A stretch of 64,000 nt of DNA from a virus. The notes under the pieces are model-generated. The model did no database searches. It was not told the origin of the DNA and saw only the letters and a program-made list of their open reading frames with translations. The translations under genes and the position numbers were made by a program. Below, in pieces: positions 35,811 to 62,744 of this stretch. How positions within the stretch are numbered: position 1 is the first letter of the stretch; the number at the start of each line of letters is the position of its first letter. Location of the stretch: IMG/VR virus record IMGVR_UViG_3300005366_000002, positions 1 through 64,000 of that record; one strand, 5' to 3'.

Positions 35811-35821
35811 GGCCTCCCCAG

Positions 35822-35853: not shown

Positions 35854-35867
35854 TTCACGTCTGGCTC

Positions 35868-37609: not shown

Positions 37610-37876
37610 ATGAAACTCGTGCTCCAAGCCAAGCAGCGTCTCCTGGCGCTGACCAAGAAGGTCGAGGCGGCCCCAAAAGGCTCCGACTTCCAGGTGAAGA
37701 TCAACTACGACGATCCGACCGGGAAGGGCATGGCGTCGACCAACGTGATGGTCCGCGACTGCCGCGATGCGGACCATGCCCGCAAGATCTTCAAGGAGCA
37801 GCACGCTCACCACTTCAAGAACGCGAAGATCGAGAAGGTGACGAAGCTCAAGGGCAACGGCCAATCCGAGGACTGA
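37610..37876 (+). CDS. Putative internal virion protein (LxLQAKxRL leader)
   Basis: MKLVLQAKQRLLA. Confidence 0.7.
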   Translation: MKLVLQAKQRLLALTKKVEAAPKGSDFQVKINYDDPTGKGMASTNVMVRDCRDADHARKIFKEQHAHHFKNAKIEKVTKLKGNGQSED

Positions 37877-37877
37877 C

Positions 37878-38321
37878 ATGGGACAACGACTAGCTCTGCA
37901 AGCCAAGTGGCGCGTCCTCTCGTTCGCCATGATCTTGTCCAACAAGGCCCTCGACCAGTGGCTGACCCAGATGGCGCGCATGAGCGGCCCTCCGGCTGCC
38001 TACGATCAGGATGGTCGCCAGACCGTCATGGAGGCCCTGCGGGTCCATCGGGACCAGAACCCGGTGATCATGGTCGTCGGCGACGCGGCTGGCAACCCGA
38101 TCCACACGTTCACCCTGGGCACGTCCGGCAACATCAAGACCGACAGCCTCAACGGCACCTACGCGGCTGACCACAAGTACCGCGCAGAGATGGGCGATCC
38201 CCGTGGGACCACCAGCCGTGTCGAGCTCCGCGTGATTGCCGTCATCGACGTCGACGAGTTCATGGAGCACTTCGGCCACGAGACGGAGCACGCTCTGCAT
38301 CCGAACCTGAAACACGCCTAG
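37878..38321 (+). CDS. Putative virion protein (leader motif; paralogue of 62806)
   Basis: MGQRLALQAKWRVL. Confidence 0.7.
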   Translation: MGQRLALQAKWRVLSFAMILSNKALDQWLTQMARMSGPPAAYDQDGRQTVMEALRVHRDQNPVIMVVGDAAGNPIHTFTLGTSGNIKTDSLNGTYAADHKYRAEMGDPRGTTSRVELRVIAVIDVDEFMEHFGHETEHALHPNLKHA

Positions 38322-38329
38322 GAGGCGCA

Positions 38330-39583
38330 ATGCCGCTGATCGACCGCCGTTCCAATCTGACGCCAGCCAATGGGCGCGCGGCTGACGTGGCGCACCGCCT
38401 GACCGAGGACATCATCCCGCTCCAACAGCAGCGCATGATGGCCGCGTTCCGTGTCCAAGGCGTGCAGGCCATTCTCTACAACCGGCTGAACACCGGCTAC
38501 GCGTGCCCCTGCAAGTCGAAGGAGAAGACCGTGGCCGTCCGGCTCGGCAAGGATGGCCGCGCTGACCCGGGTGCGATCAACGAGGTGCTGACTGGCGAAC
38601 CCAAATTCGGTGTTCGCCCCTACGCGCCTCTGACTCCCGACACCGAGTTCGAGGAGTTCTCCGACTTCGGTGATGGTCCCACGAGCCCCAACAACCAGGT
38701 CTCGCAGTTCATGGGTGACCTCATCAAGGGCGGTGAGGAAGACGGGTTTAACAACCTGATCACCACGGAAGCGTTCGTCGGTTCCGTCGGTCAGACCGAT
38801 CCGGAGATCGACGACCTCTACAAGGAGTACGACCTGGGATCCATCGGGCTCTCCGACGTCTCGTGCCCCATCTGCTTCGGCTCCGGCTACATCGGCGGCT
38901 ACACCCCGTTCCGTGCGTGGCGCCGTGTGGTCGCCGCCACCGAGATCGCGGAGACGTCCCAGACGCTCGACCTGCCTAGCATGGGCCTCCGCGCCGGGAC
39001 CCACAGCTTCGACCTGGTGCTGCCCCGCGGCGCTGTGGTCCTCGATGCGTTCCGCGTCATGAACGGCAAGCTGATCGTCCCTGCGCGCATCTTGATCGAC
39101 GGTACTGACACGGCGAACAAGCGGGTGCTCCAGTGGTTCGACGGGACACCACACAAGGTGACGATTGACTGCCCTACGGAGTTCACGCACTTCGAGGCGC
39201 AGGCAGGTCTGTCCAAAGAGCCCATCTACTTCGAGTTCCCGAAGCGTGGCCGGTCCGGTGACATCTCGCAGCTCGAAAAGATGGAGCCTTTCCAGATCAT
39301 CGTCTCCCCGGATGTCCCGCAGCTCGACACGCTGGACGTGATCATGGAGAGCCAGGAGGGGAAAGCGCTGGTCGTCCAGAGCACCAACCCATGGAACTCG
39401 CGGAACAACCAGTTCCTGGGCTGGGAGTGCATGGTCCGCGTGGCCCAACCGCAGGAGCTCTACTACCTGCTCCCATCCCGCAGCCCCTTCGCTGGCCAGC
39501 GGTCGACCAACGCGGTGGTGCCGAGCAAGCAGACGACCATCAGCGGTCTCTCTGCTGGCGGCACCCAGGGATTCACCTTCTGA
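38330..39583 (+). CDS. Putative structural (neck/head-tail) protein
   Basis: CPC..CPICFGSGYIGGY pattern seen in neck proteins of large myoviruses; late context. Confidence 0.5.
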   Translation: MPLIDRRSNLTPANGRAADVAHRLTEDIIPLQQQRMMAAFRVQGVQAILYNRLNTGYACPCKSKEKTVAVRLGKDGRADPGAINEVLTGEPKFGVRPYAPLTPDTEFEEFSDFGDGPTSPNNQVSQFMGDLIKGGEEDGFNNLITTEAFVGSVGQTDPEIDDLYKEYDLGSIGLSDVSCPICFGSGYIGGYTPFRAWRRVVAATEIAETSQTLDLPSMGLRAGTHSFDLVLPRGAVVLDAFRVMNGKLIVPARILIDGTDTANKRVLQWFDGTPHKVTIDCPTEFTHFEAQAGLSKEPIYFEFPKRGRSGDISQLEKMEPFQIIVSPDVPQLDTLDVIMESQEGKALVVQSTNPWNSRNNQFLGWECMVRVAQPQELYYLLPSRSPFAGQRSTNAVVPSKQTTISGLSAGGTQGFTF

Positions 39584-39600
39584 CCTACGAGGAGCAGTCA

Positions 39601-40968
39601 ATGCTCATTGAACCACAAGAACTGAAGGCCAGCTCTGCCGTGCTCCAGAAGCTCAAGGAGATGAGCGACGAGGAGCTGGCTCGTCACGTGACCAACGTGA
39701 ACTGCGCGCTCTCCTGGATGTCCACGCTGGGCCAGGGAACCAAGTCGATTGGTAAGCTCAAGACGATCACCGCTGCATCTGCTCCTGACTGGGACATCAA
39801 GTGCGTGATCGAGGGCCTCCACTGGCTGGGCTCTCTGGCACCTGCGACAGTAGAAGGGCTCACCGAGGTCTACGCGGTGCATGATCACGTGCCGGAGATC
39901 AAGCCTGGGCAGCCCCTGGAGATCGAGCCATCGGAGCCTCTGCTGTGCTGGTCTCCGACGAAGCCAGACCAGATGCGTGACCGCACGATGGAGCCCTCGA
40001 AGGACTACGTGCTGCGACTCCATGACCCGCTGGTCATCTTCGCCTACAACACCATGGACGACCTGGACTTCCCGGCCGTCTCGGTGATCCCGAAGATCAA
40101 CCCACTGCTGGTGGCCCTGAAGAAGCTGCGTGACCGCGCGGAGATCCTGCGAGCCGACCAGATCGTGGTGGTCTTCCACGGGCGTCGGCCGTTCCGTGTG
40201 GATGTCATGCCAGGTCTCGAACGAGAGGAGCCAACGGAAGACCCGGTGCACCAGCAGCTCACGGGTCCCGGCGAACCCATCGAAGAGCCGATCAACGCAT
40301 CTGCCACATCGTCCACTCAGCCTGACCAAGCCGAAGATGAACTCCTGTCCCGACTCATCCGCTCGACCAGCGAGCACGATTTCCACGGTCACGTGGTTCC
40401 TCGCTCCGATGGCTGTCGCGCTAAGTGCGGCGGCCCTCAATCCCGAGTCCTACGTTGCTCCGTCTGCGCCGCAGAAGCCGCTCTTCTCGCAGACGGCCGG
40501 CACCCGCTGAGCGACCCGGAGGTCTACGCGCACATCAGCGCGACGACCCGACGACTGGAGGCCCGCAAGCCGTTCTCGGAGCTGGCCCACAAGATCTCGG
40601 TGGACCTCGGATCGGCCGACGATGAACTGATGAGGTCGCTCGTCAACTTCCTGGGCGCCGTTGCCTGGTGCGGTCAAGTCGGCCACTCCGCGACGATCTC
40701 CATGTTCGTCGATGGTGACGGTGCCGGATCGCTCCGCATCGAAGGGCTGCCGGCTACCGATCTCAAGCTGGGTGCCGCGATGGCAGAAGCCGCGTCGAAC
40801 CACGGAGACTCGCTGATGGTCGAGGTCGGGCCCTCCTCCGCGTCCGCCTACTCGACGCAGTACGATGAACAAGATCGCACCTACTACACGCGCACCTGCG
40901 TGTTCCCGAAATCCGAAGAACCCTCTGAAGAACTCTCCAAAGAACCCAAGTCCAAGGACTCGCAATGA
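39601..40968 (+). CDS. Hypothetical, probably processed virion protein
   Basis: GAGGAG RBS; several [VIL]-x-A sites. Confidence 0.7.
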   Translation: MLIEPQELKASSAVLQKLKEMSDEELARHVTNVNCALSWMSTLGQGTKSIGKLKTITAASAPDWDIKCVIEGLHWLGSLAPATVEGLTEVYAVHDHVPEIKPGQPLEIEPSEPLLCWSPTKPDQMRDRTMEPSKDYVLRLHDPLVIFAYNTMDDLDFPAVSVIPKINPLLVALKKLRDRAEILRADQIVVVFHGRRPFRVDVMPGLEREEPTEDPVHQQLTGPGEPIEEPINASATSSTQPDQAEDELLSRLIRSTSEHDFHGHVVPRSDGCRAKCGGPQSRVLRCSVCAAEAALLADGRHPLSDPEVYAHISATTRRLEARKPFSELAHKISVDLGSADDELMRSLVNFLGAVAWCGQVGHSATISMFVDGDGAGSLRIEGLPATDLKLGAAMAEAASNHGDSLMVEVGPSSASAYSTQYDEQDRTYYTRTCVFPKSEEPSEELSKEPKSKDSQ

Positions 40969-42170
40969 ACACCCAAGTGCAAGCCGCTGAAGGCAACCAG
41001 AACTTCCGCTCCATCGAAGAGGTGAAGCGGTATCTCAAGGACCAGGCTTCCGACATCGCCGAGTTCAAGACGGTGTTCGACAAGCAGATGACGCAGATGG
41101 CGCGCATGGTCGCCCGGGCCATCACCGCGTCCGGTGAAACCCAGATCCTCGACTTCTCGGGCTCCGGTGGACGTCGGAAGAAGACGATGAACGTCGACTT
41201 CCCCGTCGTCGAAGTGCCGAACAAGGAAAAGCTCCGCGAGCACTACAAGCTGGCCGAGCTGCTCAGCGAGCGCTACAAGAACCTGACGCAGGCCGAGAAC
41301 GCGATGCGCATGGACTTTGCTGGCGACCAGAGCCCGGCCTTCAAGGAGGCGATGGGCTCGTTCAACAAGCTGAAGTCCCACGTGGAGGCCATGCTGAAGG
41401 AAGTGTTCACGGCGCTCAACCAGATCGCCGAAGGCCACGCTCCCAAGCAGTACCTGAAGTTCGTGAAGGCGCTCGCCGACGAGCTGGAGGCCAACAAGCA
41501 CATCGAGTGCGACGGCCTCCAAACCATGACCTACGCGTCGCTGGACGGTGAAGACAACCTGGTGTTCGCCGGCTACATCATCCTCCTGAACGCCGTGTCG
41601 GACGACCAGAAGATCGTGCCGCACCTCTACATCGTGATCAAGTGGACCGTTGGCGGCAACGTCGAGCTGTTCATCGAGCACGACTTCGTGGCCCCGGGTC
41701 TGCTGAAAGGCGGGATCGTCATCGAGAGCCTGCGGGCCGCCGCATCGGCGATCGCCACGCAGATGGCCCTCGAAGGCTTCTCGTCCCAGATCGGCAACCT
41801 GCCGGTCTCCATGCAGATCAAGGAGCCGGCCGGTGGTCTCCGCAAGGAGGCGTTCTCGGCTGCCGACTGGATCGAGGACGTGAAGGGCGAGGAAGACGCG
41901 CTGGTCTTCGTCCTCAAGACGAGCGATCCCAAGCAGGTGTCGGAGATCCGTGCGCAGATCTACGCGCAGGTCCGGGAGATGCTGAAGCGCAAGCGCAGCA
42001 CCTACGTGAAGATCCACCAGGACGGGCCGAACGTGCTGCGCTACACGTTCTCCAACATCGAGCATGGCGGCGGGATCCACCCGCATGACCTGGAATGGCT
42101 GCGCGACAAGTACAAGCTGGACGACGCGCAGCTCCGCAAGATCGCGAACAACATCAACTCCGGGGAGTAG
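40965..42170 (+). CDS. Hypothetical, probably virion protein
   Basis: MNTQVQAAE, RAITASG; strong codon bias. Confidence 0.75.
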   Translation: MNTQVQAAEGNQNFRSIEEVKRYLKDQASDIAEFKTVFDKQMTQMARMVARAITASGETQILDFSGSGGRRKKTMNVDFPVVEVPNKEKLREHYKLAELLSERYKNLTQAENAMRMDFAGDQSPAFKEAMGSFNKLKSHVEAMLKEVFTALNQIAEGHAPKQYLKFVKALADELEANKHIECDGLQTMTYASLDGEDNLVFAGYIILLNAVSDDQKIVPHLYIVIKWTVGGNVELFIEHDFVAPGLLKGGIVIESLRAAASAIATQMALEGFSSQIGNLPVSMQIKEPAGGLRKEAFSAADWIEDVKGEEDALVFVLKTSDPKQVSEIRAQIYAQVREMLKRKRSTYVKIHQDGPNVLRYTFSNIEHGGGIHPHDLEWLRDKYKLDDAQLRKIANNINSGE

Positions 42171-42173
42171 GCC

Positions 42174-42716
42174 ATGCAGGTGCTCGCGGAGGATCTCAAG
42201 CAGTACCTGGCACGCCTCCGTGACGCGTTCGTCATGCTGCCCATGGGGCATGGCGCCTACGGAGTCGTCTACGACCACCCAAGCGATCGTGACATGGTGG
42301 TCAAGATCAGCGCCAACGATCCCGGCTACATGGAGTACGTGAAGTTCTGCATGAACAACAGCGGGAACCGTTGGCTGCCGGAAGTCCATGACGTGCATCT
42401 CCTGGACCTCGACGAGCCGTACGAAGTGTACGCCGTGTTCCTCCAGCGCCTGGAGAAGACGACACCACAGGCTGTGCAGCGCGTGTTCGCCCGTGAGATC
42501 GCTCCGTGGGTGACTTCCTGGGACACCTACAGTGAGCGGACGCGCCTGAGCTTTCCCGAGTGGAAGAACGTGCTGCGGACTGCCCCTGACCCGCAGACGC
42601 GGCGACTCGCCCAGTTCCTGATCACCCACTTCAACCGGCTGGATCTGCTCAACCAGAACTTCATGCAGCGTGGCTCCCAGGTCGTGTTCAACGATCCGCT
42701 GACGCCCATCAAGTAG
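42174..42716 (+). CDS. Minimal protein-kinase-like protein resembling the T7 gp0.7 kinase domain
   Basis: GHGAYGVVY, VVK, DLLNQNFM, FNDP. Confidence 0.7.
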   Translation: MQVLAEDLKQYLARLRDAFVMLPMGHGAYGVVYDHPSDRDMVVKISANDPGYMEYVKFCMNNSGNRWLPEVHDVHLLDLDEPYEVYAVFLQRLEKTTPQAVQRVFAREIAPWVTSWDTYSERTRLSFPEWKNVLRTAPDPQTRRLAQFLITHFNRLDLLNQNFMQRGSQVVFNDPLTPIK

Positions 42717-42726
42717 AGGACAGAAG

Positions 42727-43713
42727 ATGAACAAACTCAACGCGGAGTCCCGGCTCCTCACAGCAGGTCTGCCCATCGAGGAGCGGCTGGCCCGTCTCGA
42801 GAACCGCCGTGAAGGTGACGGGCTCATGACGCCCCAGACAAGCCGCCACGAGGACACGGCGATCGAGGAGCAACTCGACACGCCCATGCACCCGGTGGAC
42901 AACATGGACGTCCAGTGCGAGGAGCCGCTGCCTGTCGTGGCCAAGCCGCTGTCGCAGCAGGTGCAGGTCATGGACCAGAAGCTCCAACAGCAAGACCAGG
43001 CTGACGCCGAGTTCCAGGCCAAGGAAGGCGAGAAGAAGGCCAAGGCCAACCAGAAGGCGCGCCTGGGAGCGTCCGCCGAGGGCCACCCGATCTCCGAGTG
43101 GGACGTGCACCTGCCTGTCTCCTACAACGAGGACGACGGCACGATGAACATCCGCGTGCTCTCCGTGATCGCCCGTGGTGCCGAAGAGGCCGTCGAGTTC
43201 GCGGAAGCCAAGTGGAAGTTCATGCAGGCCTCGCCGGTTCAGCCGGTGAAGGCCGGTCGTGGCACCGGCTTCGGCGCTGGCGTGCTGCTCATGGCTGCTG
43301 ACACCGGCCGGATCTTCCTGGCCAAGCGGTCCTCCAAGGGCGATGAAGGTGGCACCTGGTGCTGCGGTGGCGGTGGCGTCGAGGACTACGAGACCATCGA
43401 AGAGGCGGCGCGCCGCGAGAACATGGAGGAGCTGGGCTTCGACCTGAAGGGCGTGCAGTTGCTCCACATGCACCGGTCCGTCCAGCCTGGTTTCATCTTC
43501 CACAACCACATGGCAGTCATCCCGCATGAACTGGAAGCGCGTCTCAACGACGAGCACAGCGAGTGTGGCTGGTTCTCCGACCTGCCCGAGCCGATGCATC
43601 CGAAGCTCATGGAGGCGATCAACACCTGGGCGGCCGCCCACGCCGACAACGAGCTGGTGAAGCAGGCCCAGGCGGAGGAAATGGCGAGCAAGATGGGCAA
43701 GGCAAACCAATAG
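42727..43713 (+). CDS. Nudix hydrolase with N-terminal extension
   Basis: GGGVEDYETIEEAARRENMEELG Nudix box; leader MNKLNAESRLLTA. Confidence 0.85.
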   Translation: MNKLNAESRLLTAGLPIEERLARLENRREGDGLMTPQTSRHEDTAIEEQLDTPMHPVDNMDVQCEEPLPVVAKPLSQQVQVMDQKLQQQDQADAEFQAKEGEKKAKANQKARLGASAEGHPISEWDVHLPVSYNEDDGTMNIRVLSVIARGAEEAVEFAEAKWKFMQASPVQPVKAGRGTGFGAGVLLMAADTGRIFLAKRSSKGDEGGTWCCGGGGVEDYETIEEAARRENMEELGFDLKGVQLLHMHRSVQPGFIFHNHMAVIPHELEARLNDEHSECGWFSDLPEPMHPKLMEAINTWAAAHADNELVKQAQAEEMASKMGKANQ

Positions 43714-43726
43714 ACGAGGGTCGATC

Positions 43727-44740
43727 ATGCGTCTCCAAGAGGTCAAGACTTTCCTGACCAAGCGTGGCTTCAACGGCCTCCAGTATGTGTCGCATTCGGA
43801 GGAGACGAAGACCTTCAACTTCAAGTACACCGAGTTCAACGACTACCACATGGGTATCGAGCCTACGGTGGCCGCCAAGGGCCAGGTCGCGGTCTACAAC
43901 ATCCCCGAGGTCGGCAAGATCGGGGTGAGTCCCGCAAACCGGATGGTCCGGTTCATCGACGCCGGCAAGGCGATCGCCAAGAAGGCGGTCAACGACTCCC
44001 ATCTCGGATTCGTCGAGGTCACGCCGGAGCTCACCGAGTTGTTCAACAAGGCCGTGACCAACTCGACGCAGCGCGTGCCCTACATGAAGGCTTTGTGGCA
44101 CTACCTGAACACTGAGAAGTTCCAGGGCCGCATGCGAGAGCCGGAGTTGAAGACCGGTCCGAGGAGTGGGAGCCGCCACAAGAACGCCCGCGGTGTCTAC
44201 TTCTCGACGAACTGGCACTCGAACGGTCCTGGCAAGATCTGGATGGCCGACTTCATGTTCAACGCGCGCGAGCCGTTCTTCCTGGAGGTCTTCCTCCACG
44301 AGATGTGCCACCAGGCTGCGCGTGAGATCGACCGCGACAGCTCCTTCGACGAGCAAGGCCACGGTCCCGTCTGGCAGAAGTGGATGCGCCACGCTGGCCT
44401 CGATCCCCGCCGCTTCGACCCGACTGACGACTACGAGTACAAGAGCACCGACGAGACGATGCACCAGGAGGAGCAGCTCGACGAGCAGTTTGGGCCACGT
44501 CAGGACGGTGCTGCGCTGGCGAAGCTGAAGAAGCTCACCAAGTTCGAACCAGGCCCTTGCTTCTACGTCTACAAGTCGCGGGCCATCCGAGGCGTGCTCC
44601 AGATGGGCTTCGACGGCAAGTCCGTGATCTTCGAGTTCAAGAATCCGAAGGGGCAGACCCGCATGCTCAGCTGGAAGACGCTGAAGCTGTTCAACAGCGG
44701 CAAGCAGGGCGGTCTGATCCACTGCTACCATATCAACTGA
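43727..44740 (+). CDS. SprT-like zinc metalloprotease
   Basis: LHEMCH..GHGPVWQKWM; LN.EKF.G.M. Confidence 0.8.
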   Translation: MRLQEVKTFLTKRGFNGLQYVSHSEETKTFNFKYTEFNDYHMGIEPTVAAKGQVAVYNIPEVGKIGVSPANRMVRFIDAGKAIAKKAVNDSHLGFVEVTPELTELFNKAVTNSTQRVPYMKALWHYLNTEKFQGRMREPELKTGPRSGSRHKNARGVYFSTNWHSNGPGKIWMADFMFNAREPFFLEVFLHEMCHQAAREIDRDSSFDEQGHGPVWQKWMRHAGLDPRRFDPTDDYEYKSTDETMHQEEQLDEQFGPRQDGAALAKLKKLTKFEPGPCFYVYKSRAIRGVLQMGFDGKSVIFEFKNPKGQTRMLSWKTLKLFNSGKQGGLIHCYHIN

Positions 44741-44749
44741 GGACTTCTC

Positions 44750-46231: not shown

Positions 46232-46278
46232 GTGACGAGCGACAATTTCATCCTCAAAGGTAATGAAAGGGTCGCTTC

Positions 46279-47100
46279 ATGTCAGACTTCTACGTGTACG
46301 CACTGCTTGACCCGCGCAAGCCTGGGAAGGCTCGCTGTCCTGGCACTGGCAAGGTCCTCCCTTGCCTGCCCAAGTACATTGGCAAGGGCCGTGGCATTCG
46401 TGCTGAGCGGTCTGCCAACGTAGAAGATCATCGGTTCATTCGGTCGACCAAGGCCGCCTGGATGCGCCGCCTCACCAGTGAAGGGCACGAGCCCCAGCTG
46501 GTCATGTTGAAGACCAACATGGAAGAGGCGGCTGCATTCGCTCTCGAACGCGACCTGATCGCCCACTTCGGACGCAAGGATCTGAAGCTCGGGCCTCTCC
46601 TCAATCGCTCGCATGGCGGCGAAGGGGCTACCCACACAACAGATGAAGACCGCGACGAGTACGTTCGCCTGCTCAAGCCTGTGAAGGGCTTCCGTCTCCT
46701 AGGGCGCATGCACGGACGAGGCTGCTATGCAAAGCATGAGTGCAAGGTCCACGGTGTCGTGGAGACTGCACCATGTCACGTTATGACTCGTCTCAAGAAG
46801 GGCATCCCTCCATGCCCACGTTGCGGCGAGACTGCTCGCGGCCCACAGATCCGTGTCCATCGACTGGCAAACGGCGAGGCCTCCTACAAGGCCTACCTTG
46901 CCTCGAAGTTCAAGACCAAGCAGTACCGCCTCGACGGCCCTTACCTGGGCGCGGTCAAGCACACTGAGCATTGGTGTGCTGTGCATGGTCAGTTCAAGAT
47001 CACACCTTCCAACGTGAGACAAAAGCTCGACCAGGGGCTGACGCCTTGTCCGGCTTGCAACGCGGTCACGCAGAGGCATGGGCCTCGCCCAAGACTGTAA
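46279..47100 (+). CDS. GIY-YIG family endonuclease with Cys/His repeats, probable free-standing homing endonuclease
   Basis: FYVYALLDPR..YIGKG..R..E..LLN; two CxVHG..CPxC repeats; more A/T-ending codons than neighbours. Confidence 0.8.
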   Translation: MSDFYVYALLDPRKPGKARCPGTGKVLPCLPKYIGKGRGIRAERSANVEDHRFIRSTKAAWMRRLTSEGHEPQLVMLKTNMEEAAAFALERDLIAHFGRKDLKLGPLLNRSHGGEGATHTTDEDRDEYVRLLKPVKGFRLLGRMHGRGCYAKHECKVHGVVETAPCHVMTRLKKGIPPCPRCGETARGPQIRVHRLANGEASYKAYLASKFKTKQYRLDGPYLGAVKHTEHWCAVHGQFKITPSNVRQKLDQGLTPCPACNAVTQRHGPRPRL

Positions 47101-47103
47101 ATA
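47097..47103 (+). promoter_or_regulatory. GTAAATA phage promoter motif, followed by a hairpin at 47113-47128
   Basis: ACTGTAAATA upstream of the GT-nrdA-nrdB genes. Confidence 0.55.
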
Positions 47104-47153
47104 CGTCACAGTGCCCTCTCCGGAGGGCTTCCGCACCTGCACAGGAAACCACC

Positions 47154-48278: not shown

Positions 48279-48326
48279 GCTGCTGCACCCTGACAGATCA
48301 TCGACCAACTACCTGGATCCAAACAC

Positions 48327-50690: not shown

Positions 50691-50709
50691 TCGACGACCG
50701 GAGAACACA

Positions 50710-52711: not shown

Positions 52712-52743
52712 ACTGGGACACCTGGAACTAGAAGGAGCAGCTC

Positions 52744-53489: not shown

Positions 53490-53513
53490 CCAACTCCTGG
53501 GGAACGCAATTTT

Positions 53514-53876: not shown

Positions 53877-53883
53877 GGTCAAG

Positions 53884-54102
53884 ATGACTCGTCGACTCGT
53901 CCTCCAGGCCAAGCAGCGCCTGGCTGAATCCAAAGTGATCGCCAAGATCGGACCGATCAAGCACGGCGACTTCCATCGCTGGCTCGGCAAGTCCGAGGAC
54001 GAGCCCATCACGGAAGCCGACATCGCCAAGGGCAAGGCCGCCGGCGGACACGCTGCCAAGATGGCGCAGTTCGCGGAGAACGCCAAGCACTGGCACCACT
54101 GA
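53884..54102 (+). CDS. Small putative internal virion protein (leader motif)
   Basis: MTRRLVLQAKQRLAES. Confidence 0.7.
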   Translation: MTRRLVLQAKQRLAESKVIAKIGPIKHGDFHRWLGKSEDEPITEADIAKGKAAGGHAAKMAQFAENAKHWHH

Positions 54103-54129
54103 AGGTCTGTGGAAGCCGAACAAAGGAAC

Positions 54130-54753
54130 ATGATGCAAACGCTGAAACTCCAAGCCAAGGAACGACTGCTGGCGACTGCCGACATCGTGCAGGACACGGT
54201 GCCTCCGTCGTCTTACGTCGCAGCTGACGTGGACGAGGACGCGCGCACCGAGCTGGAACGCCAGCTGGGCAAGGCGGAACACGGCGAGCACGAAGCCGAG
54301 AAGGCCGGTGACGACGTCGCCGAGAGCCGCTACAAGGACCTGATGAGCGAAATGGACACCGCATTGTCGCACGGCTCCGATTCGGTCGCAGCCGTGAAGG
54401 CCAACGACACGTCGGATCAACCCGGCATGACGGTCGCTGATCCCGCGCTGCGTCCCCAGATGCAGCACGCACTGGGCCCGGAAGGCATGCTGACGCTCAA
54501 CGCCTCGCTGTTCAACGAGACGGAGCTGAAGGAGCTGGCCCAGCTGAACGCCAAGGACTCGCTGGTTCAAGCCGACACGGAAGACCCGATCTCCGACGGC
54601 GCCGCCTACGACCTGCTGGTCGATGGCGATCCGTCCGAAGAGGAGCCGGTCGTCCAGGAACTGACGAACAACGACGGCTCCACGGAAGCGCCGGACGATC
54701 AGCCCCTGCTGGTCGACGACGTGCCGCCTGCCATCCCGGTCATGAAGGCCTGA
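54130..54753 (+). CDS. Acidic putative internal head protein (leader motif)
   Basis: MMQTLKLQAKERLLA; several VKA/LNA/VQA sites. Confidence 0.7.
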   Translation: MMQTLKLQAKERLLATADIVQDTVPPSSYVAADVDEDARTELERQLGKAEHGEHEAEKAGDDVAESRYKDLMSEMDTALSHGSDSVAAVKANDTSDQPGMTVADPALRPQMQHALGPEGMLTLNASLFNETELKELAQLNAKDSLVQADTEDPISDGAAYDLLVDGDPSEEEPVVQELTNNDGSTEAPDDQPLLVDDVPPAIPVMKA

Positions 54754-54790
54754 TCGGAGCTCCAGGAGCGAACGATAAATAGAGGTCACT

Positions 54791-55480: not shown

Positions 55481-55809
55481 GCAAAGAGCTGACCTTCACC
55501 TGGAACCGCGACGGTGCCGAAGGGGACGTCAGCGCTGTCTCGTTTCCTCAGGCGCTGGATCGCGCGAAGGTCCAGTTCCTGAAGAAGAGGGGCTGCGGTC
55601 CCGGGACCGCCAAGTTCCGCATCAACAAGGAAGAACTGCGCGATCGGTTCTTCAAGATCGGGCTCAGTCCGCTGACGTTTCAGCGGTACAAGGAGCTCTA
55701 CCTGGGCTTCAAGGAGGATCAGCTGAGTCCGGCTGACCTGGAGGAGCTCGCCCAATTCCAATCGTTCTACAAAGCAAGGTCTGCATATGAACACGAGTAC
55801 AAGCGCTGA
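55477..55809 (+). CDS. Hypothetical protein
   Basis: ATGA overlap. Confidence 0.6.
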   Translation: MSKELTFTWNRDGAEGDVSAVSFPQALDRAKVQFLKKRGCGPGTAKFRINKEELRDRFFKIGLSPLTFQRYKELYLGFKEDQLSPADLEELAQFQSFYKARSAYEHEYKR

Positions 55810-58800
55810 ACGCCAAGCTCTCGTCGAAGCCCACCTGGCGGTTCGCCCGATGACGAACCTCGTCCCGCACGAGGAGTTCGCGCTGACCAAGGAGCAGCTG
55901 AACAGCGGCTTCATGGGTGTCTTCAACTGGAACTATGAAGGCGATCCCCGCAAGACCCTGCTGAAGGTCGCGCTGGGTCCCATCATGGACATGACGGCCA
56001 TGATCACCGGCAAGATGCCGGTCGGCAAGACCGAGGAAGACCGCAAGAACCGGAAGCTGAAGAACCAGAGCCTCCGCAAGTTCGCCGAGAACCGCCTGAA
56101 GTCCAACCTGGCGCAGTACACGACGCTCCAGAAGGTCAACAAGGGCGACGACTCCTACTTCCTGGTCGGCCTCCCGATCGCGAAGTTCACGGGTCCCGAC
56201 AGCGCGGCTGCCCTGATCTCCCTGTTCGACGGCCCGGCCTTGACCGAGGAAGGTCGCGCCAACATCGAATCGTCCATGAAGAACGTGGACGAGAAGTCGG
56301 TGGCCGTGTTCCCCGCTGCCCAGGCCCTGAAGGGCGCTGGCCTCGCCCCGAAGGCCATGAAGGTCTTCAGCGAAGCTCTCGTCGACGTGCGCTACAAGAC
56401 CGTCCAGGGTCAGGGCACGATGATGTTCCTGACCCTGAAGCTCGACAAGGCTGCCGCGCAGTACATCACGAGCCAGGACTGGGTCGAGATCCGTCCGTCT
56501 GACGTGTACCCGCTGATGGTCGGCTGGGTCGAGGCCGAGTACGTGTCGGTCAACTACGGCAAGACGTCTATGTCGATGTCGAAGATCGCGACGACGCTGC
56601 CCAAGCACCTGCCGGGTGACGAGCGCGTCGACGCCTTCAACATCGGCATCCTCACCTCCGGCGAGCCCATCTGGATTCCCAAGGAGTGCGACAACACGGA
56701 GCGCTACGAGTCCATGTACTCGGCGGCCGGCTCCAAGGAGAACGGCGAGTTCGCGCTGCGTCAGCTGGGCCAAGAAGTCGAGCCGCATCTGCCGAACAAC
56801 ATCCCGATCCTCACCGACTGGGTCAACAACAAGTTCACGTACTCGAACTCCGTGGGCAAGCCGGTCATCCTCGACCTGGCCCACCTGCGCAAGTGCACCG
56901 CCTCGATGGCGCTCAACGTCCTTCGCCGGGACATGAGCGAGGACTACGTCAAGACCATCAGCTACTACGCGAAGGAGTGCCGCGTCTCGATCGCCGCAAC
57001 CGACTACGGCGCCACGTCGGTCCTCGGTGCCTTCGGCTCGAAGCCGAACCTCGAGATCGGCGACTACGCGGTCTTCGCCTTCAAGACCTGGATGGAGATC
57101 ACGAAGAGCGCGCACCTGCGCTACTACGACGTGATGGACAGCCTGACCCTGAAGGCTGACAACGAGGGCACGCCGGTCACCAAGGACTCGATCGTCGACA
57201 ACCCGGAGATGTTGCTCGAGCCAATCGCGCGGTTCATCAAGGCCCTCGTGCCGTCGATGATCGCCAACCTCGAGGCTCTGTTCGTCCGCTACGCCGTCAA
57301 GACCATGACGGAGCAGCTCGGCCTGCTGGCTCTCCTGGCCAACTACGGTGCGGACCTGACAAAGACGACGGTCGAGTCCAACACGATCAACAAGGCTGCG
57401 CTCCAGCAGGGCGTCCTGCCTGGGTGGACTCCGCCTCCGATCCCGCTCCTGACCTCGAAGTTCCAGTCGGAGAACGGCGGTCTCCTGCCTCACCAGCTGA
57501 AGATCCGCAACATCCTGCGTGACCGTCCTGACCTGGCTGCCCTGCCGGTCGATGCCGGTGGCGGCAAGTCCATGCTGGCCATCACGGATGTCCTGAACGA
57601 GGTGGCGGCTGGCGAGAGCGCTCCGTACCTGGTGATGTGCCCGTCCCACCTGGTCGCCAACTACGTGTCGGAGATCGTGGAGTTCACGGATGGCAAGGTC
57701 AACGTGATCCCGGTCACGACCTACAACATCCAGACGACTGGCCTCAAGCGCTTCCAGGAGATCCTGGAGACGGCGCCGATCAACACGATCCTCGTGGTCG
57801 ACTACGACTGCCTGAAGTACATGGGTCGTGCCACGGTCTACGGTACTTCGACGATCTACGTCTACCCGATCGTGGAGATGATCCGCCGCTTCAAGCCTGG
57901 CTACGTCTTCATGGACGAGTCGCACTTCCTGCGCAACGCCGGCAACGCCCGCTTCAAGGCGGTGATGACGCTGGTCGCTGACATCAAGAAGAAGCGCGTG
58001 GCGTCCGGTACGATGAACCCGGACAGCCCGTCTGACCTGCCGGGCCAGATGGCGATCCTCGACCCGACGATCTTCGGCACGCGTGCCCAGTTCAACGCGA
58101 AGTACGGCGACAAGGTCAGTGGCAACCGCGTGCTGTCCTGGAAGACGACGGGTCCTGACTCGATCAACACCGTGCTGCCGACGCTGCAGAACTCGGTGGT
58201 CTGGGCTCCGGCCAAGCGCAAGGAGTGGGCGTGCGCGCTGCCTCCGCGTCGCGACCGCTTCCTCGCCGTCACGCTGACGGACGCGCAGATGGCGGTCTAC
58301 GACGCTCTGTTCGACGAGATGGTGGAGTCGATCCGCAAGAAGGCCGAGACCGACAAGAACGCGAAGAAGCTGCTGGACAAGCTGACCGGCAAGGCCGCGA
58401 CCGCCGAAGACGAGGCCGCGTTCTCCGACCTGGGCGGCGACAAGGAGAAGGGCGACGCTGAAGGCGGTGACGACGAGGAGGATGAAGACGAAGAGGACGT
58501 GGGTCCTGCGCTGCAACCCTACCTCGCCAACATCGAGCGGTTCGTCAGCAACCCTGCGTGGCACCCGTACGCCAAGCATGGTTTCAAGGATCGCAACGGC
58601 AAGGTCCACCCACCTCTCTCCGGTGAAGACCTGATCTCGCCGAAGGCTCGCGAGCTGGCGAAGCAACTGAAGCTCTACCTGGACTCGCACGAGACCAAGG
58701 CGCTGATCTTCACGAACTACAACGAGACCACCGACTCGCTGTTCAACGCGATGCCGGAGGAACTCCGGTCCTGCGGTCTGCTGTACAAGACCGGCAACAA

Positions 58801-60739
58801 GACCGAGTTCGTGAACCGTTTCAAGACGGACCCGAAGATCCGCTGGATGATCGGCATCCGCAAGTCGCTCGAAGTCGGTCTGAACCTCCAGCAAGCCGGC
58901 TACCTGGTCCGCATGGAAGGCGTGTGGAACCCAGGCGAGCAGGAGCAGGGTGACTCCCGGATCGAACGCCCGAACTTCTCGGTTCAGGGCGACCAGCGGA
59001 CAGAGCTGCTGTTCGACACGATCGTGGCCAACTACACGATCGACATCACCAAGGCCGCGCGTCTGCGTGCCAAGATCGTGGCGCTCGCCAAGTTCGACAA
59101 CTCGCGGAACCCCGCGTACAACGACGAAGCGATCCCGCCGATCCCGGTCATCCCGATGAACCTGGAGACGATCAAGACGATGAACGACTTCAACTCGAAC
59201 CTGGCCAAGTACCAGTCGTCGATGAAGGCGCTCAACGACATCACGCAGGCCGAGTATAAGGAGTACAAGGAGCAGACGATCGCCGAGGGCGGCTTCAAGT
59301 TCACGCAAGTCGAGCAGGCGCCGGTTCCTCCGGGTGCGGCCATGCTGGCCCGCGTGCCTTACGCCCAAGGCACCGAGCTCTACAGCGCCAAGGAGATGGG
59401 GCTGATCCGCGTCGACAACTACCTGGGCATGGAGCTGACCCAGGAGGACGAGGAAGGCGACGACGAGACGCCGGAAGTCGAAGACGACAGCACCGACTCG
59501 GAAGTCGTGAAGGAGCAGCGCGCGAAGGTCATGGGCAAGCGTTGCCACTGCGAGTTCGGCGACGGTCGCATCAGCGGTGCGGCTGCGATCGGCGGCAAGG
59601 GCTTCGTGACCCGGATCAACGTGGCGCTCGACGACGGGACTGCGGCGGTCAAGCTGAAGGCGACCAACGTGTTCATCATGACGCGTACGGAGACCAACGG
59701 CATCGACATGCGGAACAAGCTGGCGCAAGCGGCCGGCCTGGAGGTCACTGCTCCGATCACCGTGCCTGGTACGGTCATCCGCAATCGTCGCATCACCCGC
59801 AAGGAGATCGAGGAGCGCGAAGCCGAGCAGAAGAAGCAGGCGGTGCAGAAGAAGAGCCTGTTCGTCGAGAAGAAGTCGAAGCTGGCGGTCAACCTCGAGC
59901 TGACGCTGATGAACGGCTACATCCGGCTGTCCTACGCGATGGGCGAGAACGACACGGCGTCCAAGGCGCTCCAGGCCCTGGGCTTCCGCAAGGATCCCAG
60001 CTACTACGAGACCCGCGTCCGCTCTGCGTCTCAGCTGATCAAGCAGGCGAAGCTCTGGGTGGAGCATGGTCTCGACACGACGAACGCGACCGACAACGAC
60101 GCGTTCGAACTGCTGTTCGACGAGCTGCAAGGTGGCAACCTCTCGCACCCGAAGCTCTACACGCAGCTGGTGTCGAAGCCAGGGTTCAACAACTTCATGC
60201 GCCAGGAGTTCAAGCCGAGCGCCGACAAGACCAAGCTCAACCTGTTCGCCCTGGTCGTCAACGACGGCCACACGAACATGGCGGAGCAGGCCGACGCGGC
60301 GAAGCAAGAGCGTGAGCCCTCCTACGGTGTGATCTATATGTGCCTGCCCGCAGGCCCTGGTCACCCGGCTTCGAAGATCGCGATCAGCCCGCAGATGAAG
60401 CACCCGTCGACCCGCTGGTTCCTCAGCTCGCCGACGCTGTCCATCTTCGTCAACAACTCCATGGGAGCGCGGAAGGTGCTGAAGTCCATCATGGACGCCG
60501 GCATCGTCATCGAGAACATGGACGAGCTGAAGCGTGACAACGCGCGCCTCAAGCTGGCACGCCTCGCCAAGGACGACGAGTTCATCGACGTCCACGCTGA
60601 TCCGGAGACCAACTCCGGTGATGACGACGAGGATCCGGACGAACGCCGCGAGCTCCAGCGCAAGACGAAGATGAACCGTGAGCAGGCTCCGAAGAAGCCG
60701 GTGAAGCCGGTGCCGAAGAAGCCTGCTGGTCGTCGCTGA
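55787..60739 (+). CDS. Very large SNF2-family helicase/ATPase
   Basis: LLPHQ, DAGGGKS, MCP, MDESH, SGT, GLNLQ, WNPG..EQ..SRIER. Confidence 0.85.
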   Translation: MNTSTSAERQALVEAHLAVRPMTNLVPHEEFALTKEQLNSGFMGVFNWNYEGDPRKTLLKVALGPIMDMTAMITGKMPVGKTEEDRKNRKLKNQSLRKFAENRLKSNLAQYTTLQKVNKGDDSYFLVGLPIAKFTGPDSAAALISLFDGPALTEEGRANIESSMKNVDEKSVAVFPAAQALKGAGLAPKAMKVFSEALVDVRYKTVQGQGTMMFLTLKLDKAAAQYITSQDWVEIRPSDVYPLMVGWVEAEYVSVNYGKTSMSMSKIATTLPKHLPGDERVDAFNIGILTSGEPIWIPKECDNTERYESMYSAAGSKENGEFALRQLGQEVEPHLPNNIPILTDWVNNKFTYSNSVGKPVILDLAHLRKCTASMALNVLRRDMSEDYVKTISYYAKECRVSIAATDYGATSVLGAFGSKPNLEIGDYAVFAFKTWMEITKSAHLRYYDVMDSLTLKADNEGTPVTKDSIVDNPEMLLEPIARFIKALVPSMIANLEALFVRYAVKTMTEQLGLLALLANYGADLTKTTVESNTINKAALQQGVLPGWTPPPIPLLTSKFQSENGGLLPHQLKIRNILRDRPDLAALPVDAGGGKSMLAITDVLNEVAAGESAPYLVMCPSHLVANYVSEIVEFTDGKVNVIPVTTYNIQTTGLKRFQEILETAPINTILVVDYDCLKYMGRATVYGTSTIYVYPIVEMIRRFKPGYVFMDESHFLRNAGNARFKAVMTLVADIKKKRVASGTMNPDSPSDLPGQMAILDPTIFGTRAQFNAKYGDKVSGNRVLSWKTTGPDSINTVLPTLQNSVVWAPAKRKEWACALPPRRDRFLAVTLTDAQMAVYDALFDEMVESIRKKAETDKNAKKLLDKLTGKAATAEDEAAFSDLGGDKEKGDAEGGDDEEDEDEEDVGPALQPYLANIERFVSNPAWHPYAKHGFKDRNGKVHPPLSGEDLISPKARELAKQLKLYLDSHETKALIFTNYNETTDSLFNAMPEELRSCGLLYKTGNKTEFVNRFKTDPKIRWMIGIRKSLEVGLNLQQAGYLVRMEGVWNPGEQEQGDSRIERPNFSVQGDQRTELLFDTIVANYTIDITKAARLRAKIVALAKFDNSRNPAYNDEAIPPIPVIPMNLETIKTMNDFNSNLAKYQSSMKALNDITQAEYKEYKEQTIAEGGFKFTQVEQAPVPPGAAMLARVPYAQGTELYSAKEMGLIRVDNYLGMELTQEDEEGDDETPEVEDDSTDSEVVKEQRAKVMGKRCHCEFGDGRISGAAAIGGKGFVTRINVALDDGTAAVKLKATNVFIMTRTETNGIDMRNKLAQAAGLEVTAPITVPGTVIRNRRITRKEIEEREAEQKKQAVQKKSLFVEKKSKLAVNLELTLMNGYIRLSYAMGENDTASKALQALGFRKDPSYYETRVRSASQLIKQAKLWVEHGLDTTNATDNDAFELLFDELQGGNLSHPKLYTQLVSKPGFNNFMRQEFKPSADKTKLNLFALVVNDGHTNMAEQADAAKQEREPSYGVIYMCLPAGPGHPASKIAISPQMKHPSTRWFLSSPTLSIFVNNSMGARKVLKSIMDAGIVIENMDELKRDNARLKLARLAKDDEFIDVHADPETNSGDDDEDPDERRELQRKTKMNREQAPKKPVKPVPKKPAGRR

Positions 60740-60751
60740 CCTGCGCAGTCC

Positions 60752-60791
60752 GCAATTTCATGAAGCACACGGGGCACCCTCGCGGTGCCCC
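60752..60791 (+). promoter_or_regulatory. GCAATTTCAT motif followed by a GGGGCACC/GGTGCCCC hairpin
   Basis: Intergenic, upstream of the head operon. Confidence 0.55.
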
Positions 60792-60812
60792 TCCCAACAT
60801 CAAGGAACAACC

Positions 60813-61328
60813 ATGCTGACCCTGAAGCAAGCAATGATCGAAGCCGGACACGTCCTCAGCGAGGGCGAAGGCTTCCTCGTCTCCGAGTTCCAGAAGGTCC
60901 GCGACTTTCTCCACAGCTCGGGCTTCGCCCACATCGGCGACAACTTCCACCTCTACGAGCAGGAAGTGGCGAAGCGCGCTGCCACCGTGAAGACTGTCGT
61001 CGAGGACGACGTCGCAAAGATCGAGGCGGCTGCGAAGAAGGCGGCGGAAGAAGCGGAGGCCGCCAAGGCCAAGGCCGAACAACTGGCGGCGGAAGCCAAG
61101 GCTGCCGAGGAGAAGGCCGTCGAGGAAGCGAAGAAGCTGGAAGCGGAGGCCAAGGCTGCCGCTGAAGCTGCTGCCGCCGAGACGGCGCGTGTCGCCGCGG
61201 AAGCTGCCGCCGCTGCGAACGCCGTCAAGGACGAGGCGACCAAGCTGGCCGGCCCTGCCGCTGAAGACGCCGAAGAAGGTGCGGCGTCCGAAGAAGCCGG
61301 CGACGCCGACCAAGCCCACAAGGAGTAA
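60813..61328 (+). CDS. Ala/Glu/Lys-rich coiled-coil protein
   Basis: Low-complexity helical repeats; AAGGA RBS. Confidence 0.75.
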   Translation: MLTLKQAMIEAGHVLSEGEGFLVSEFQKVRDFLHSSGFAHIGDNFHLYEQEVAKRAATVKTVVEDDVAKIEAAAKKAAEEAEAAKAKAEQLAAEAKAAEEKAVEEAKKLEAEAKAAAEAAAAETARVAAEAAAAANAVKDEATKLAGPAAEDAEEGAASEEAGDADQAHKE

Positions 61329-61331
61329 ACG

Positions 61332-61751
61332 ATGGCCCGAATCATTGGCAACGCCGGTCCCGGCATGAACCCGACGCGCACTGGTTCGGGTATCGACAAG
61401 CGCCGTTCCCCGTTCGCCCGCATCACGATCATCGCTGACGAAGACGGCGACGTCTTCCGTCTCCCGTCGTCCGATCTGTTCCCGAAGTTCGCCCAGGTCT
61501 ACCAGGGCATCTTCGTGCAAGGCCAAGGGCTGACTGGTGGCACGGTCCAGGTGGACGCGACGCTGGTTCCCGCTGACCAGGCGCTGAACCCTGCGCAGGA
61601 CACGCCGGAGACCGGCGAGCAGTCCATCTGGCACGCGGACACCACGGTGGCCGTCGGCAACGCGATCTCCAAGCTGAGCTGCCCGTGCCCCTCGGCTCTT
61701 CGCATCACGTTCGCCAAGAAGGGCACGCTGCTCCACCTGGTGGGAGTCTGA
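61332..61751 (+). CDS. Putative structural protein
   Basis: Beta-rich; AAGGAG RBS; head operon context. Confidence 0.65.
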   Translation: MARIIGNAGPGMNPTRTGSGIDKRRSPFARITIIADEDGDVFRLPSSDLFPKFAQVYQGIFVQGQGLTGGTVQVDATLVPADQALNPAQDTPETGEQSIWHADTTVAVGNAISKLSCPCPSALRITFAKKGTLLHLVGV

Positions 61752-61752
61752 C

Positions 61753-62520
61753 ATGGGCTTTCCTCGACAATACTTCGACTCCGAAGAGCGAGCACGACTG
61801 CTGACGGCGGCTCAGCTCATCAAGGGCGTCGGCATTTCCCAGGAGCCTGCGGTCGATCTGGAGCACGCTCCCGAGATCATCAGCCGTCTCGACTTCGAGA
61901 CGTGGCTCCCGTTCGCGGCGAAGACGTACCACATCAGCCCGCGCATCGAGGACTACATCCTCAAGGCGATGCCGATCTGCCCGTCGGACTTCCCGAACCG
62001 CAACGGCATCGGGTTCCCGCTCGCCGAGCTGATCAAGTTCCAACCGCCGCCGATCAATCGACAGGTCTTCAAGGCCTGGACTGGCTGCCCGGTGCATCTG
62101 GAGCATGACAACGAGGACTGCACCAAAGCCTACGGTGTGATCTTCGACACGGCGCTGACGGCGATCTCCAAGTACGGCCAGGGCAAGCACTACAAGGTCA
62201 TGGGCCTCGTCGGGATCGACAAGACCAAGTACCCGGACATCGCGCAGGAGGTGATGGAGGGCAAGATCATCACCGGCTCCATGGGAGCGATGGCTGACGC
62301 GTTCACCTGTTCCGTCTGCGGCCGTGAAGCCCACGAGAACAAGTTCATGAACTGCGGCCACGTGGGCTCCACCAAGGAGGTCAACTGGCGGTACGTGGAC
62401 TACCAGGGCAAGCGCCACATCGCGTACCTCAACGCGCACGGCCTCTCGCCGATCGAGTACTCCCTGGTTCGCGACCCTGCGTGGGTCACGGCCCTGTCTG
62501 ACCACCAGATGAGCTGGTGA
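61753..62520 (+). CDS. Prohead (capsid maturation) protease
   Basis: PNRNG..F..EL, PVHLEH.N, GVIFD, IDKTKYP..A, GSMG, CSVCG, IEYSLVRDPA: HK97/herpes-type Ser-His protease pattern. Confidence 0.8.
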   Translation: MGFPRQYFDSEERARLLTAAQLIKGVGISQEPAVDLEHAPEIISRLDFETWLPFAAKTYHISPRIEDYILKAMPICPSDFPNRNGIGFPLAELIKFQPPPINRQVFKAWTGCPVHLEHDNEDCTKAYGVIFDTALTAISKYGQGKHYKVMGLVGIDKTKYPDIAQEVMEGKIITGSMGAMADAFTCSVCGREAHENKFMNCGHVGSTKEVNWRYVDYQGKRHIAYLNAHGLSPIEYSLVRDPAWVTALSDHQMSW

Positions 62521-62561
62521 CCTGAACTCAACGACCATCATCGACCATCATCGAGGAACTC

Positions 62562-62744
62562 ATGAAGAACCCGTACATCCGCAAGCTCGACCTGCAGGCG
62601 AAGTCGCGTCTGCAAGCCAGCACCAGTCTCCACGGAGACGACTACACGTCCGTGCCCAACGCCGAGAAGAACAGCGTCGGGCAGAAGCTGAACAACGGGG
62701 GCTCGGAAGCCCAGAAGGTCCAGCTGGCGTCCAAGAAGAAGTAA
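62562..62744 (+). CDS. Small putative virion protein (leader motif)
   Basis: KLDLQAKSRLQAS; GAGGA RBS. Confidence 0.7.
   Translation: MKNPYIRKLDLQAKSRLQASTSLHGDDYTSVPNAEKNSVGQKLNNGGSEAQKVQLASKKK

Follow-up and report, generated by a model that had tools for sequence, protein, structure and literature searches.

A recurrent N-terminal peptide on unrelated proteins of an RSL1-like jumbo phage and its candidate role as a head-loading tag

Tagged proteins and the conserved peptide

The window analyzed here is the first 64 kb (positions 1 to 64,000) of the 104,105-bp virus record IMGVR_UViG_3300005366_000002 (62% G+C), referred to below as the contig. Protein searches identify the record as an RSL1-like jumbo phage, with Ralstonia phage RSL1 and Burkholderia phage BcepSauron as its kin. 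A number of its genes, one of them directly behind the gene for a head maturation protease, open with the same short peptide, which we call the tag. An initial annotation of the window had noticed this peptide on five open reading frames (ORFs) and suggested that it directs cargo into the capsid. The five ORFs, their peptides and the two DNA strings quoted for them are all present exactly as described. The five copies are real, but they undercount the set, as the window holds six tagged genes and the contig 14.

Ten of the 14 tagged N-termini are strong and four are weaker. Besides the six in the window (Table 1), tagged genes start at contig positions 71589, 71975, 72219, 73543, 73983, 75138, 76097 and 77296, in the region bounded by the tail tube gene and 77.6 kb. 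All are on the plus strand and have the tag arginine at residue 8–16. The aligned copies form an 11-residue block, L-x-L-Q-A-K-Q-R-L-x-A, in which L3, A5 and R8 are invariant, and the general form can be written as M-(x)0-8-L-Q-A-K/R-x-R-L-x-A-(T/S). Most of the tagged genes have a ribosome-binding site of the GGAG/GAGG type upstream of the start codon, and the G+C content at third codon positions is coding-like in all of them (0.77–0.90).

Trimmed of the tag, the 14 carriers are unrelated to one another, the best E value in an all-against-all blastp comparison being 0.26 and phmmer finding nothing; the five carriers named initially had rightly been called otherwise unrelated. The set includes basic proteins of 60–88 residues with isoelectric points (pI) of 9.7–9.9, an acidic protein of 207 residues, a Nudix hydrolase and several ORFans without a family match. 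Searches of the tagged proteins against Pfam and PHROGs returned only the Nudix domain on the contig and RNase_T in relatives, and a search of the ESM Atlas with a 232-residue protein gave no usable match. In the Nudix hydrolase, about 165 residues of an acidic, Gln-rich spacer separate the degenerate tag from the Nudix domain (residues 183–284; Pfam PF00293, E 3.6e-15). The initial annotation had seen two weak versions of the motif in this protein. The N-terminal one is real, as the RSL1 and BcepSauron orthologs have it too, whereas the internal NQKARLGA is not supported, as the orthologs align their tag at the true N-terminus. The stretch EERARLLTA in the protease, also listed as a weak version, has to be abandoned since the relatives differ at this place, L005 reading LRRELLMA and L004 having nothing alike.

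Three of the small carriers can be followed into other phages. The ortholog of the 72-residue protein in L007 (60% identity) is tagged too, and the orthologs of the 207-residue acidic protein in L007 and in G001, the nearest relative, keep the tag and a C-terminal block around a variable middle. A homolog of the 60-residue protein, with RL.AS.SLHGDD in common, lies inside BcepSauron gp093 (L016:10364-10606), before the connector gene; the same small cargo is thus found at another locus.

The pattern L.[L]QA[KR].R[LV] is confined to N-termini. The minimal expression L.A..R[LV] gives 42 six-frame matches on the contig versus 28 ± 5 in shuffled sequence, and the surplus consists of the 14 N-terminal copies. 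A position-specific scoring matrix (PSSM) built from the contig's own tags yields a bimodal distribution, in which the tags score 23–31 bits and the next match 14. Against circularity, a cross-phage PSSM was trained on 36 tags from six other phages only. Its top ten hits in the six-frame translation of the contig are ten contig tags, at 14.0–27.8 bits, with the best non-tag at 13.5; the weaker members are those starting at 37878, 42727, 71589 and 71975. Since the excess over shuffles, the bimodal contig matrix and the cross-phage ranking all agree, a chance origin of the tag is excluded. The contig thus has 14 N-terminal copies of the tag and no internal one. A crude de novo search for N-terminal triads was uninformative, as Met-anchored patterns and wrong start codons dominated its output.

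Table 1 Tagged genes and other features in and next to the window. Positions above 64,000, and the 500-residue protein that runs up to them, are given in contig numbering; bits refer to the cross-phage PSSM unless stated otherwise.
Feature	Positions	Strand	Tag	Evidence and remarks
Topoisomerase IB	35807-37582			Pfam Topoisom_I, E 1.2e-16; among tagged genes
Basic 88-aa protein	37610..37876	+	LVLQAKQRLLA, residues 3-13 (~37616-37648)	26.9 bits
147-aa protein	37878..38321	+	LALQAKWRVLS (weaker)	leave-one-out PSSM 12.9
Nudix hydrolase, 328 aa	42727..43713	+	MNKLNAESRLLTA (degenerate, N-terminal)	12.6 bits
SprT-like metalloprotease domain protein	43727-44740			E 9.2e-10; among tagged genes
Basic 72-aa protein, pI 9.9	53884..54102	+	LVLQAKQRLAE	23.8 bits
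Strongly acidic 207-aa protein, pI 4.1, 22% D+E	54130..54753	+	LKLQAKERLLA	27.8 bits
SNF2-family helicase, 1650 aa	55787-60739		none	Pfam SNF2-rel_dom and Helicase_C; phrog_62, phrog_21391
Head maturation protease	61753..62520	+		phrog_18299, E 5.9e-75; presumed trimming enzyme of the tag
Basic 60-aa protein, directly 3' of the protease gene	62562..62744	+	LDLQAKSRLQAS, residues 10-21	27.7 bits
500-aa protein, between protease and capsid genes	63933-65435 (contig)			partial PHROG 'ATPase' match; no Pfam hit
228-aa virion protein	65478-66164 (contig, outside window)
Capsid protein	66204-67274 (contig, outside window)

The DNA under the tag is far more variable than the peptide. The invariant residues L3, A5 and R8 are encoded by three, three and four synonymous codons, respectively; exchanges between K and R, AAG versus CGC or CGA, require two to three base changes; and the 60 bases upstream of the tagged starts have no common sequence. 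The variety of codons and the unlike upstream DNA therefore indicate that the constraint acts on the peptide, in line with the protein-level conservation proposed from the synonymous differences. The tag is a strictly N-terminal, modular peptide under protein-level selection that is carried by unrelated proteins. It is basic and polar, with single arginine residues and no twin-arginine motif, and probably forms a short, basic amphipathic helix according to prediction. Nothing points to a Sec or Tat signal or a membrane anchor, as no 19-residue Kyte–Doolittle window reaches 1.6 in any tagged protein and the only maxima at the N-terminus, seen in four of the small proteins, are at most 0.4. For a tagged 318-residue protein, a transmembrane or pore-forming (ejection) character was rejected (maximum 19-residue window 1.41, below 1.6; AlphaFold2 (AF2) model poor, with a predicted local distance difference test score (pLDDT) of 56).

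Gene setting and evolution of the tag in the clade

The protease is 57–60% identical to proteins of RSL1, of the Burkholderia phages BcepSauron, BcepSaruman and BCSR5, and of Achromobacter phage Motura. The closest relatives are uncultured IMG/VR contigs (protease identity for L004/G001 76%). A megablast search of 20 kb against the phage collection gave no match and no near-identical phage record; the relatives were recognized by protein search. The gene order around the protease follows that of RSL1 and BcepSauron, namely topoisomerase IB and Nudix hydrolase, connector, SNF2 helicase, protease, capsid protein, and sheath and tube. An SNF2 helicase gene lies beside the head genes also in RSL1 (ORF129) and BcepSauron (gp088). 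Within the tagged array outside the window, the gene at contig 74678-75130 is untagged and matches phrog_1128; its product shows a sub-threshold match to Peptidase_C92, a permuted papain-like amidase (E 7.7e-5, 23.2 bits versus a cut-off of 27).

The heptamer GTAAATA recurs upstream of genes in the early or replication parts of this contig. It is found at window positions 12240, 15861, 20137, 21911, 25025, 29914 and 47097 on the plus strand and at 9720 and 11888 on the minus strand, and beyond the window at contig positions 79942, 85548, 95268 and 98906 on the minus strand. Genes of a single transcription class, early or middle, probably have it as their promoter core. A scan of the contig found it missing from 30–78 kb save for the copy at 47097, a gap that is compatible with a different transcription class of the tagged genes and is no proof of late timing.

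The 50 tag instances from seven phage lineages align without gaps, with the arginine at residue 6–16 (median 9). Columns that played no part in selecting them are conserved as well: relative to the arginine, L is found at −5 in 36 of 50, A at +3 in 39 and T or S at +4 in 29. G001 has 14 tags with the consensus M-K-L-Q-A-K-x-R-L-L-A, mostly on non-orthologous ORFans, and only four of its 14 tagged proteins have detectable counterparts among the tagged set of the contig. The same tag heads proteins in L005-L007, L008 and L009. RSL1 uses a dialect, x-I-x-A-A-V-x-R-L-x-A-T-E-V, on ORF109, 111, 112, 120, 123, 124, 127, 133 and 210, and BcepSauron has the tag on gp099, gp091, gp077 and gp075 and inside gp093; a hidden Markov model of the tag from this clade misses the BcepSauron copies, which were recognized by eye. 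In RSL1 ORF111, ORF112 and ORF133 (L001) and in BcepSauron gp093 (L016), the annotated start lies upstream of an in-frame Met codon directly before the tag, which suggests that these internal Met codons are the true starts.

What the tag is attached to changes from phage to phage. The gene after the protease is tagged on the contig and also in RSL1 (ORF133), G001 and L005-L007, yet the gene is non-homologous in these four lineages. Three lineages have a tag on the Nudix hydrolase (this contig, RSL1 ORF109 and BcepSauron gp099), although the domains are only 34% identical; in RSL1 ORF109 and BcepSauron gp099 the tag immediately precedes the Nudix domain. Relatives also carry a tagged RNase_T/DEDD 3'-5' exonuclease (L018:9928-10524 in G001 and L009:11056-11658; Pfam PF00929, E 4.7e-10 and 3.6e-6), for which no counterpart was found on this contig. 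In the 24-member metagenomic family of the 318-residue protein, no fewer than 90% of the members retain M1, A5, R8 and L9, and the 6–10 residues after these are variable.

A split gene illustrates how closely the tag is tied to the polypeptide. One 322-residue G001 protein (L018:7229-8194), tagged once, corresponds here to the two adjacent tagged ORFs at 37610 and 37878. The first is its 'domain A' (58% identity to residues 67–128 of G001_73229) and the second its 'domain B' (48% identity to residues 124–235), and the roughly 35 residues inserted at the junction amount to a stop codon plus a tag for the second half. A search for other fused or split forms of the 37878 product returned one 97% identical copy of near length and none among longer proteins. 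Whether the change was a split or a fusion, each separate polypeptide is tagged. The two tagged halves are also the closest hint from nature that the tag might suffice to load a foreign protein.

The tags of one genome resemble one another more than those of other genomes. Identity at non-selected columns is 0.375 within genomes versus 0.227 between them, a difference that none of 2000 label permutations reaches, and the likeness is strongest in RSL1 (0.28 within, 0.08–0.13 to others). Such concerted evolution would be produced by one shared reader per phage, or by repeated copying of the tag. Across genomes, the tag is thus modular and found throughout the clade in genome-specific dialects, and its cargo changes while the tag itself remains.

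Protease, capsid protein and possible cleavage

From the PHROG match and the structural comparison together, we take the phage to encode a head protease of the gp21 type; the structural part of the assignment would not suffice alone. The protease has no sequence match in Pfam or PDB. Its AF2 model (pLDDT 62) has T4 gp21 as the best VIA match (5jbl_B; Z 6.2, root-mean-square deviation 4.5, 131 residues), and the herpesvirus proteases, the assemblins, come next in the structural ranking (Z 3.5–4.2).

At its N-terminus, the major capsid protein contains K-x-P-V-[VL]-A-[TSH]-[ED], a short stretch conserved in ten lineages, and the neighboring 228-residue virion protein has a conserved D-S-[AST]-E at residues 11–14. 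Both fit the A/S/G-x-E sites at which prohead proteases of giant phages cut (PMC5694885). Maturation cleavage probably takes place at A-[TSH]-[ED] in the capsid protein and at D-S-[AST]-E in the virion protein. In its C-terminal half, which reads L-x-A-T/S and often then E/D, the tag resembles the capsid-protein N-terminus, as seen when 'VLATE' is set against 'RLLATE'. Tags end in 'RLLATE', 'RLQATE' or 'RLRATE' in relatives and in 'RLLAEE', 'RLLAE' or 'RLAE' on this contig, and five of the nine RSL1 tags end in ATE, STE, SLE or ATD. By analogy the tag might be trimmed directly after its end; a cut after the conserved Ala is equally possible. The herpesvirus assemblins cut after Ala.

Possible destinations and known systems

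We consider a capsid-targeting propeptide in the style of T4 to be the best reading of the tag, about as likely to be right as to be wrong. Each phage of the clade would attach the tag to a changing set of unrelated proteins, and one shared partner per phage would read it; this single reader is what the higher identity of tags within than between genomes argues for. The likeliest reader would be the assembling prohead, by way of its scaffold or core or of the capsid shell's inner surface. The tagged proteins would be incorporated into the head like the cargo of the T4 capsid-targeting sequence (CTS), and the tag would probably be cut off by the gp21-type protease, at L-x-A-(T/S)-(E/D) or shortly behind it. 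At infection, the cargo would leave the head together with the DNA; it includes small basic and acidic proteins and the Nudix hydrolase, joined in relatives by an RNase T-type exonuclease. Tagged genes are neighbors of the protease and connector genes and, in RSL1, of the portal gene. A hint that Nudix-type enzymes can be head-internal comes from phrog_15528, a PHROG with the annotation portal protein, to which a Nudix domain has a match as well. As far as the initial annotation proposed capsid targeting, the modular N-terminal tag, the gp21-type protease and the capsid-like tag end speak for it, and an acidic site at a fixed position after the tag does not.

Several points weigh against head loading. 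The tagged proteins are known from their genes; their presence in particles, and with it their location in the head, cleavage and ejection, is what we infer, and the GenBank and RefSeq notes contain no virion evidence. Although D or E occurs at R+4 to R+6 in 25 of 50 tags, it is not enriched there over the acidic stretch further downstream, and E is found at +3 to +5 in only about four of the 14 contig tags, most of which have no canonical site; a cut immediately behind the tag is thus not the general case. The fold match of the protease is middling (its Z of 6.2 comes from the model with a pLDDT of 62), and Foldseek gave no significant match. Eight tagged genes follow the tail tube gene and one in BcepSauron lies between sheath and tube, an arrangement that fits a tail destination too. 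Ribonucleotide reductase and further non-structural genes share the block with the tagged ones, which leaves late timing unproven. Finally, G003, a related 155-kb contig with a protease 62% identical, has no clear tag set, and none was found close to the genes for the head in Pseudomonas phage Aura, whose protease is 36% identical; the system is therefore limited to a subclade, or too diverged elsewhere for detection.

Two rival explanations deny the peptide a common function. What is conserved at the gene starts might be a signal in the nucleic acid, for instance a downstream box, a recombination site or a site for a translational regulator, with the peptide as a by-product. Its constant position within about 50 nt of the start codon would suit this, as would the Gln codon of the tag, which is CAA in nine of 11 copies against a general preference for CAG (83% overall). 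However, when all genes are taken together, CAA makes up 51% of Gln codons within the first 15 positions versus 17% overall, and the excess in the tag is explained by this general shift to A-ending codons at 5' ends. The variety of codons at L, A and R, the K/R exchanges and the lack of upstream conservation described above also speak against a nucleic-acid signal, and the amino-acid motif persists in phages of 40–62% GC and, with a different sequence, in RSL1, so that we find this explanation scarcely credible. The similarity could instead be a functionless leftover of repeated duplication or recombination that spread one exon-like N-terminal piece. Near-identical tags within the genome do suggest copying, 54130 pairing with 77296, and 53884 with 76097 and 73983. 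But neutral relics would decay, and the tag stands on both halves of the split gene; its core is kept across lineages whose proteases are only 57–60% identical, and in 23 of the 24 members of the orthologous family of the 318-residue protein while the flanks drift. Such an origin is very improbable.

A functional tag may also lead elsewhere than to the head. It could dock its carriers to a shared non-capsid partner, be it an AAA+ chaperone, translocase or unfoldase (BCS1-, ClpX- or ClpA-like, of phage or host), act as an N-degron for timed degradation, or address an infected-cell site. All of the evidence for one reader per genome fits docking equally well, cleavage of the tag is not established, and a basic N-terminal peptide followed by a variable linker is also what degrons and chaperone tags look like. 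AAA+ chaperones are often encoded by jumbo phages, and a role in moving proteins during assembly has been proposed for them (PMC7824862); RSL1 encodes an AAA ATPase (ORF091). On the contig, however, no AAA+ unfoldase was recognized, the 500-residue protein of Table 1 having no more than a partial PHROG 'ATPase' match; moreover, the tag end resembles the conserved capsid-protein N-terminus and the tagged genes adjoin protease, portal and connector genes, which makes a non-capsid partner unlikely in our judgment. Loading into the lumen of the virion tail or baseplate, comparable to the N-terminal signals that package the payloads of extracellular contractile injection systems, has the gene order of the second tagged cluster in its favor: of the 11 genes that follow the tail tube gene, eight have a tag; in BcepSauron, gp077 is located between the sheath and tube genes and gp075 behind the tube gene; and payload genes come after the tail genes in contractile injection systems. 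Yet tagged genes are also found at head genes, following the protease in four lineages and beside the portal in RSL1; the end of the tag resembles the capsid propeptide; and the tail lumen of a myophage holds the tape measure protein and later the DNA. We regard a tail destination as decidedly unlikely.

If head loading is correct, a wider statement might hold, although it is rather more doubtful: in RSL1-like phages, Sarumanvirus and uncultured relatives from soil and water, any protein starting M-x-L-Q-A-K-x-R-L-x-A would be loaded into the head and then injected along with the DNA. The whole 'injectome', a fast-turnover ORFan arsenal plus enzymes such as the Nudix hydrolase and the RNase T-type exonuclease, would then be readable from the genome, and the injected proteins of an entire jumbo-phage clade, with Ralstonia and Burkholderia among the hosts, could be listed from sequence, where proteomics would otherwise be needed. 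The known systems have few proteins with a common tag (T4) or no consensus (P1 and phiKZ-like phages). The list would supply many ORFans and candidate first-minute counter-defense enzymes, these being the Nudix and RNase T-type enzymes, which may eliminate nucleotide immune signals ahead of any phage gene expression. The dialects would form a natural set for the study of tag–receptor co-evolution, and the tag a short, defined handle for packing foreign proteins into the cultured phages RSL1 and BcepSauron. Even without a head destination, one peptide and one partner for 14 unrelated proteins would make a clear and testable sorting system.

Full-text searches and the papers examined, among them ones on RSL1, Sarumanvirus and jumbo-phage comparative genomics, gave no description of this tag, and the papers on Matilda, FLC6 and PaBG and the jumbo-phage overviews do not mention an N-terminal tag. 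The principle has parallels in the cargo-loading peptides of encapsulins and the payload signals of contractile injection systems, short terminal peptides that address unrelated enzymes to an HK97-fold shell or to a contractile tail particle. Encapsulin tags are mostly C-terminal and of other sequences, the injection-system signals are longer, disordered and without consensus, and we claim no homology of either with the present tag. Payload genes of contractile injection systems are clustered beside structural genes; on the contig, the eight-gene tagged array follows the tube gene, no AAA+ loader was recognized, and the tag is short and predicted to be helical.

Among phages, P1 offers a functional precedent, since the N-terminal 30 residues or fewer of DarB suffice for head loading and the cargo delivered with the DNA is an anti-restriction enzyme (PMC9024508). 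The Dar proteins have no common N-terminal consensus (PMC9024508), whereas the consensus here is striking, and the SNF2 helicase encoded by the head genes is untagged. The phiKZ-like phages SPN3US, phiKZ and 201phi2-1 are jumbo myophages as well, and their gp21-like protease cuts after A/S/G-x-E (PMC5694885), to be compared with A-[TSH]-[ED] in the capsid protein here and ATE, STE and SLE in RSL1 tags. The SPN3US paralogs gp53 and gp54 share an identical 15-residue N-terminus that has been taken as CTS-like (PMC5694885). Most SPN3US propeptides, however, exceed 100 residues and show no consensus across unrelated proteins (PMC5694885), in contrast to the 11-residue consensus on 14 proteins of the contig.

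The closest comparison is T4, in which an N-terminal CTS of 10–20 residues is found on the internal proteins IPI, IPII and IPIII and on Alt (Mullaney and Black 1996, as summarized in PMC5694885). Both systems place a short N-terminal peptide on otherwise different proteins in a phage with a gp21-type prohead protease. An x-E/D site follows part of the copies here, and the tagged set contains small, highly charged proteins along with enzymes. The differences are that the present tag belongs to another phage lineage (RSL1-like phages, Sarumanvirus and uncultured relatives), heads many more genes (at least 14 per genome), and has a basic A-x-x-R-L-x-A core conserved over several genera, while the acidic cleavage residue is not constant. 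Packaging is proven in T4, whereas the system described here has been read from genes. The T4 CTS sequence is, we presume, unlike this tag, and we do not claim homology. T-even phages have hypervariable loci of CTS-bearing ORFans, to which the tagged array described here is similar.

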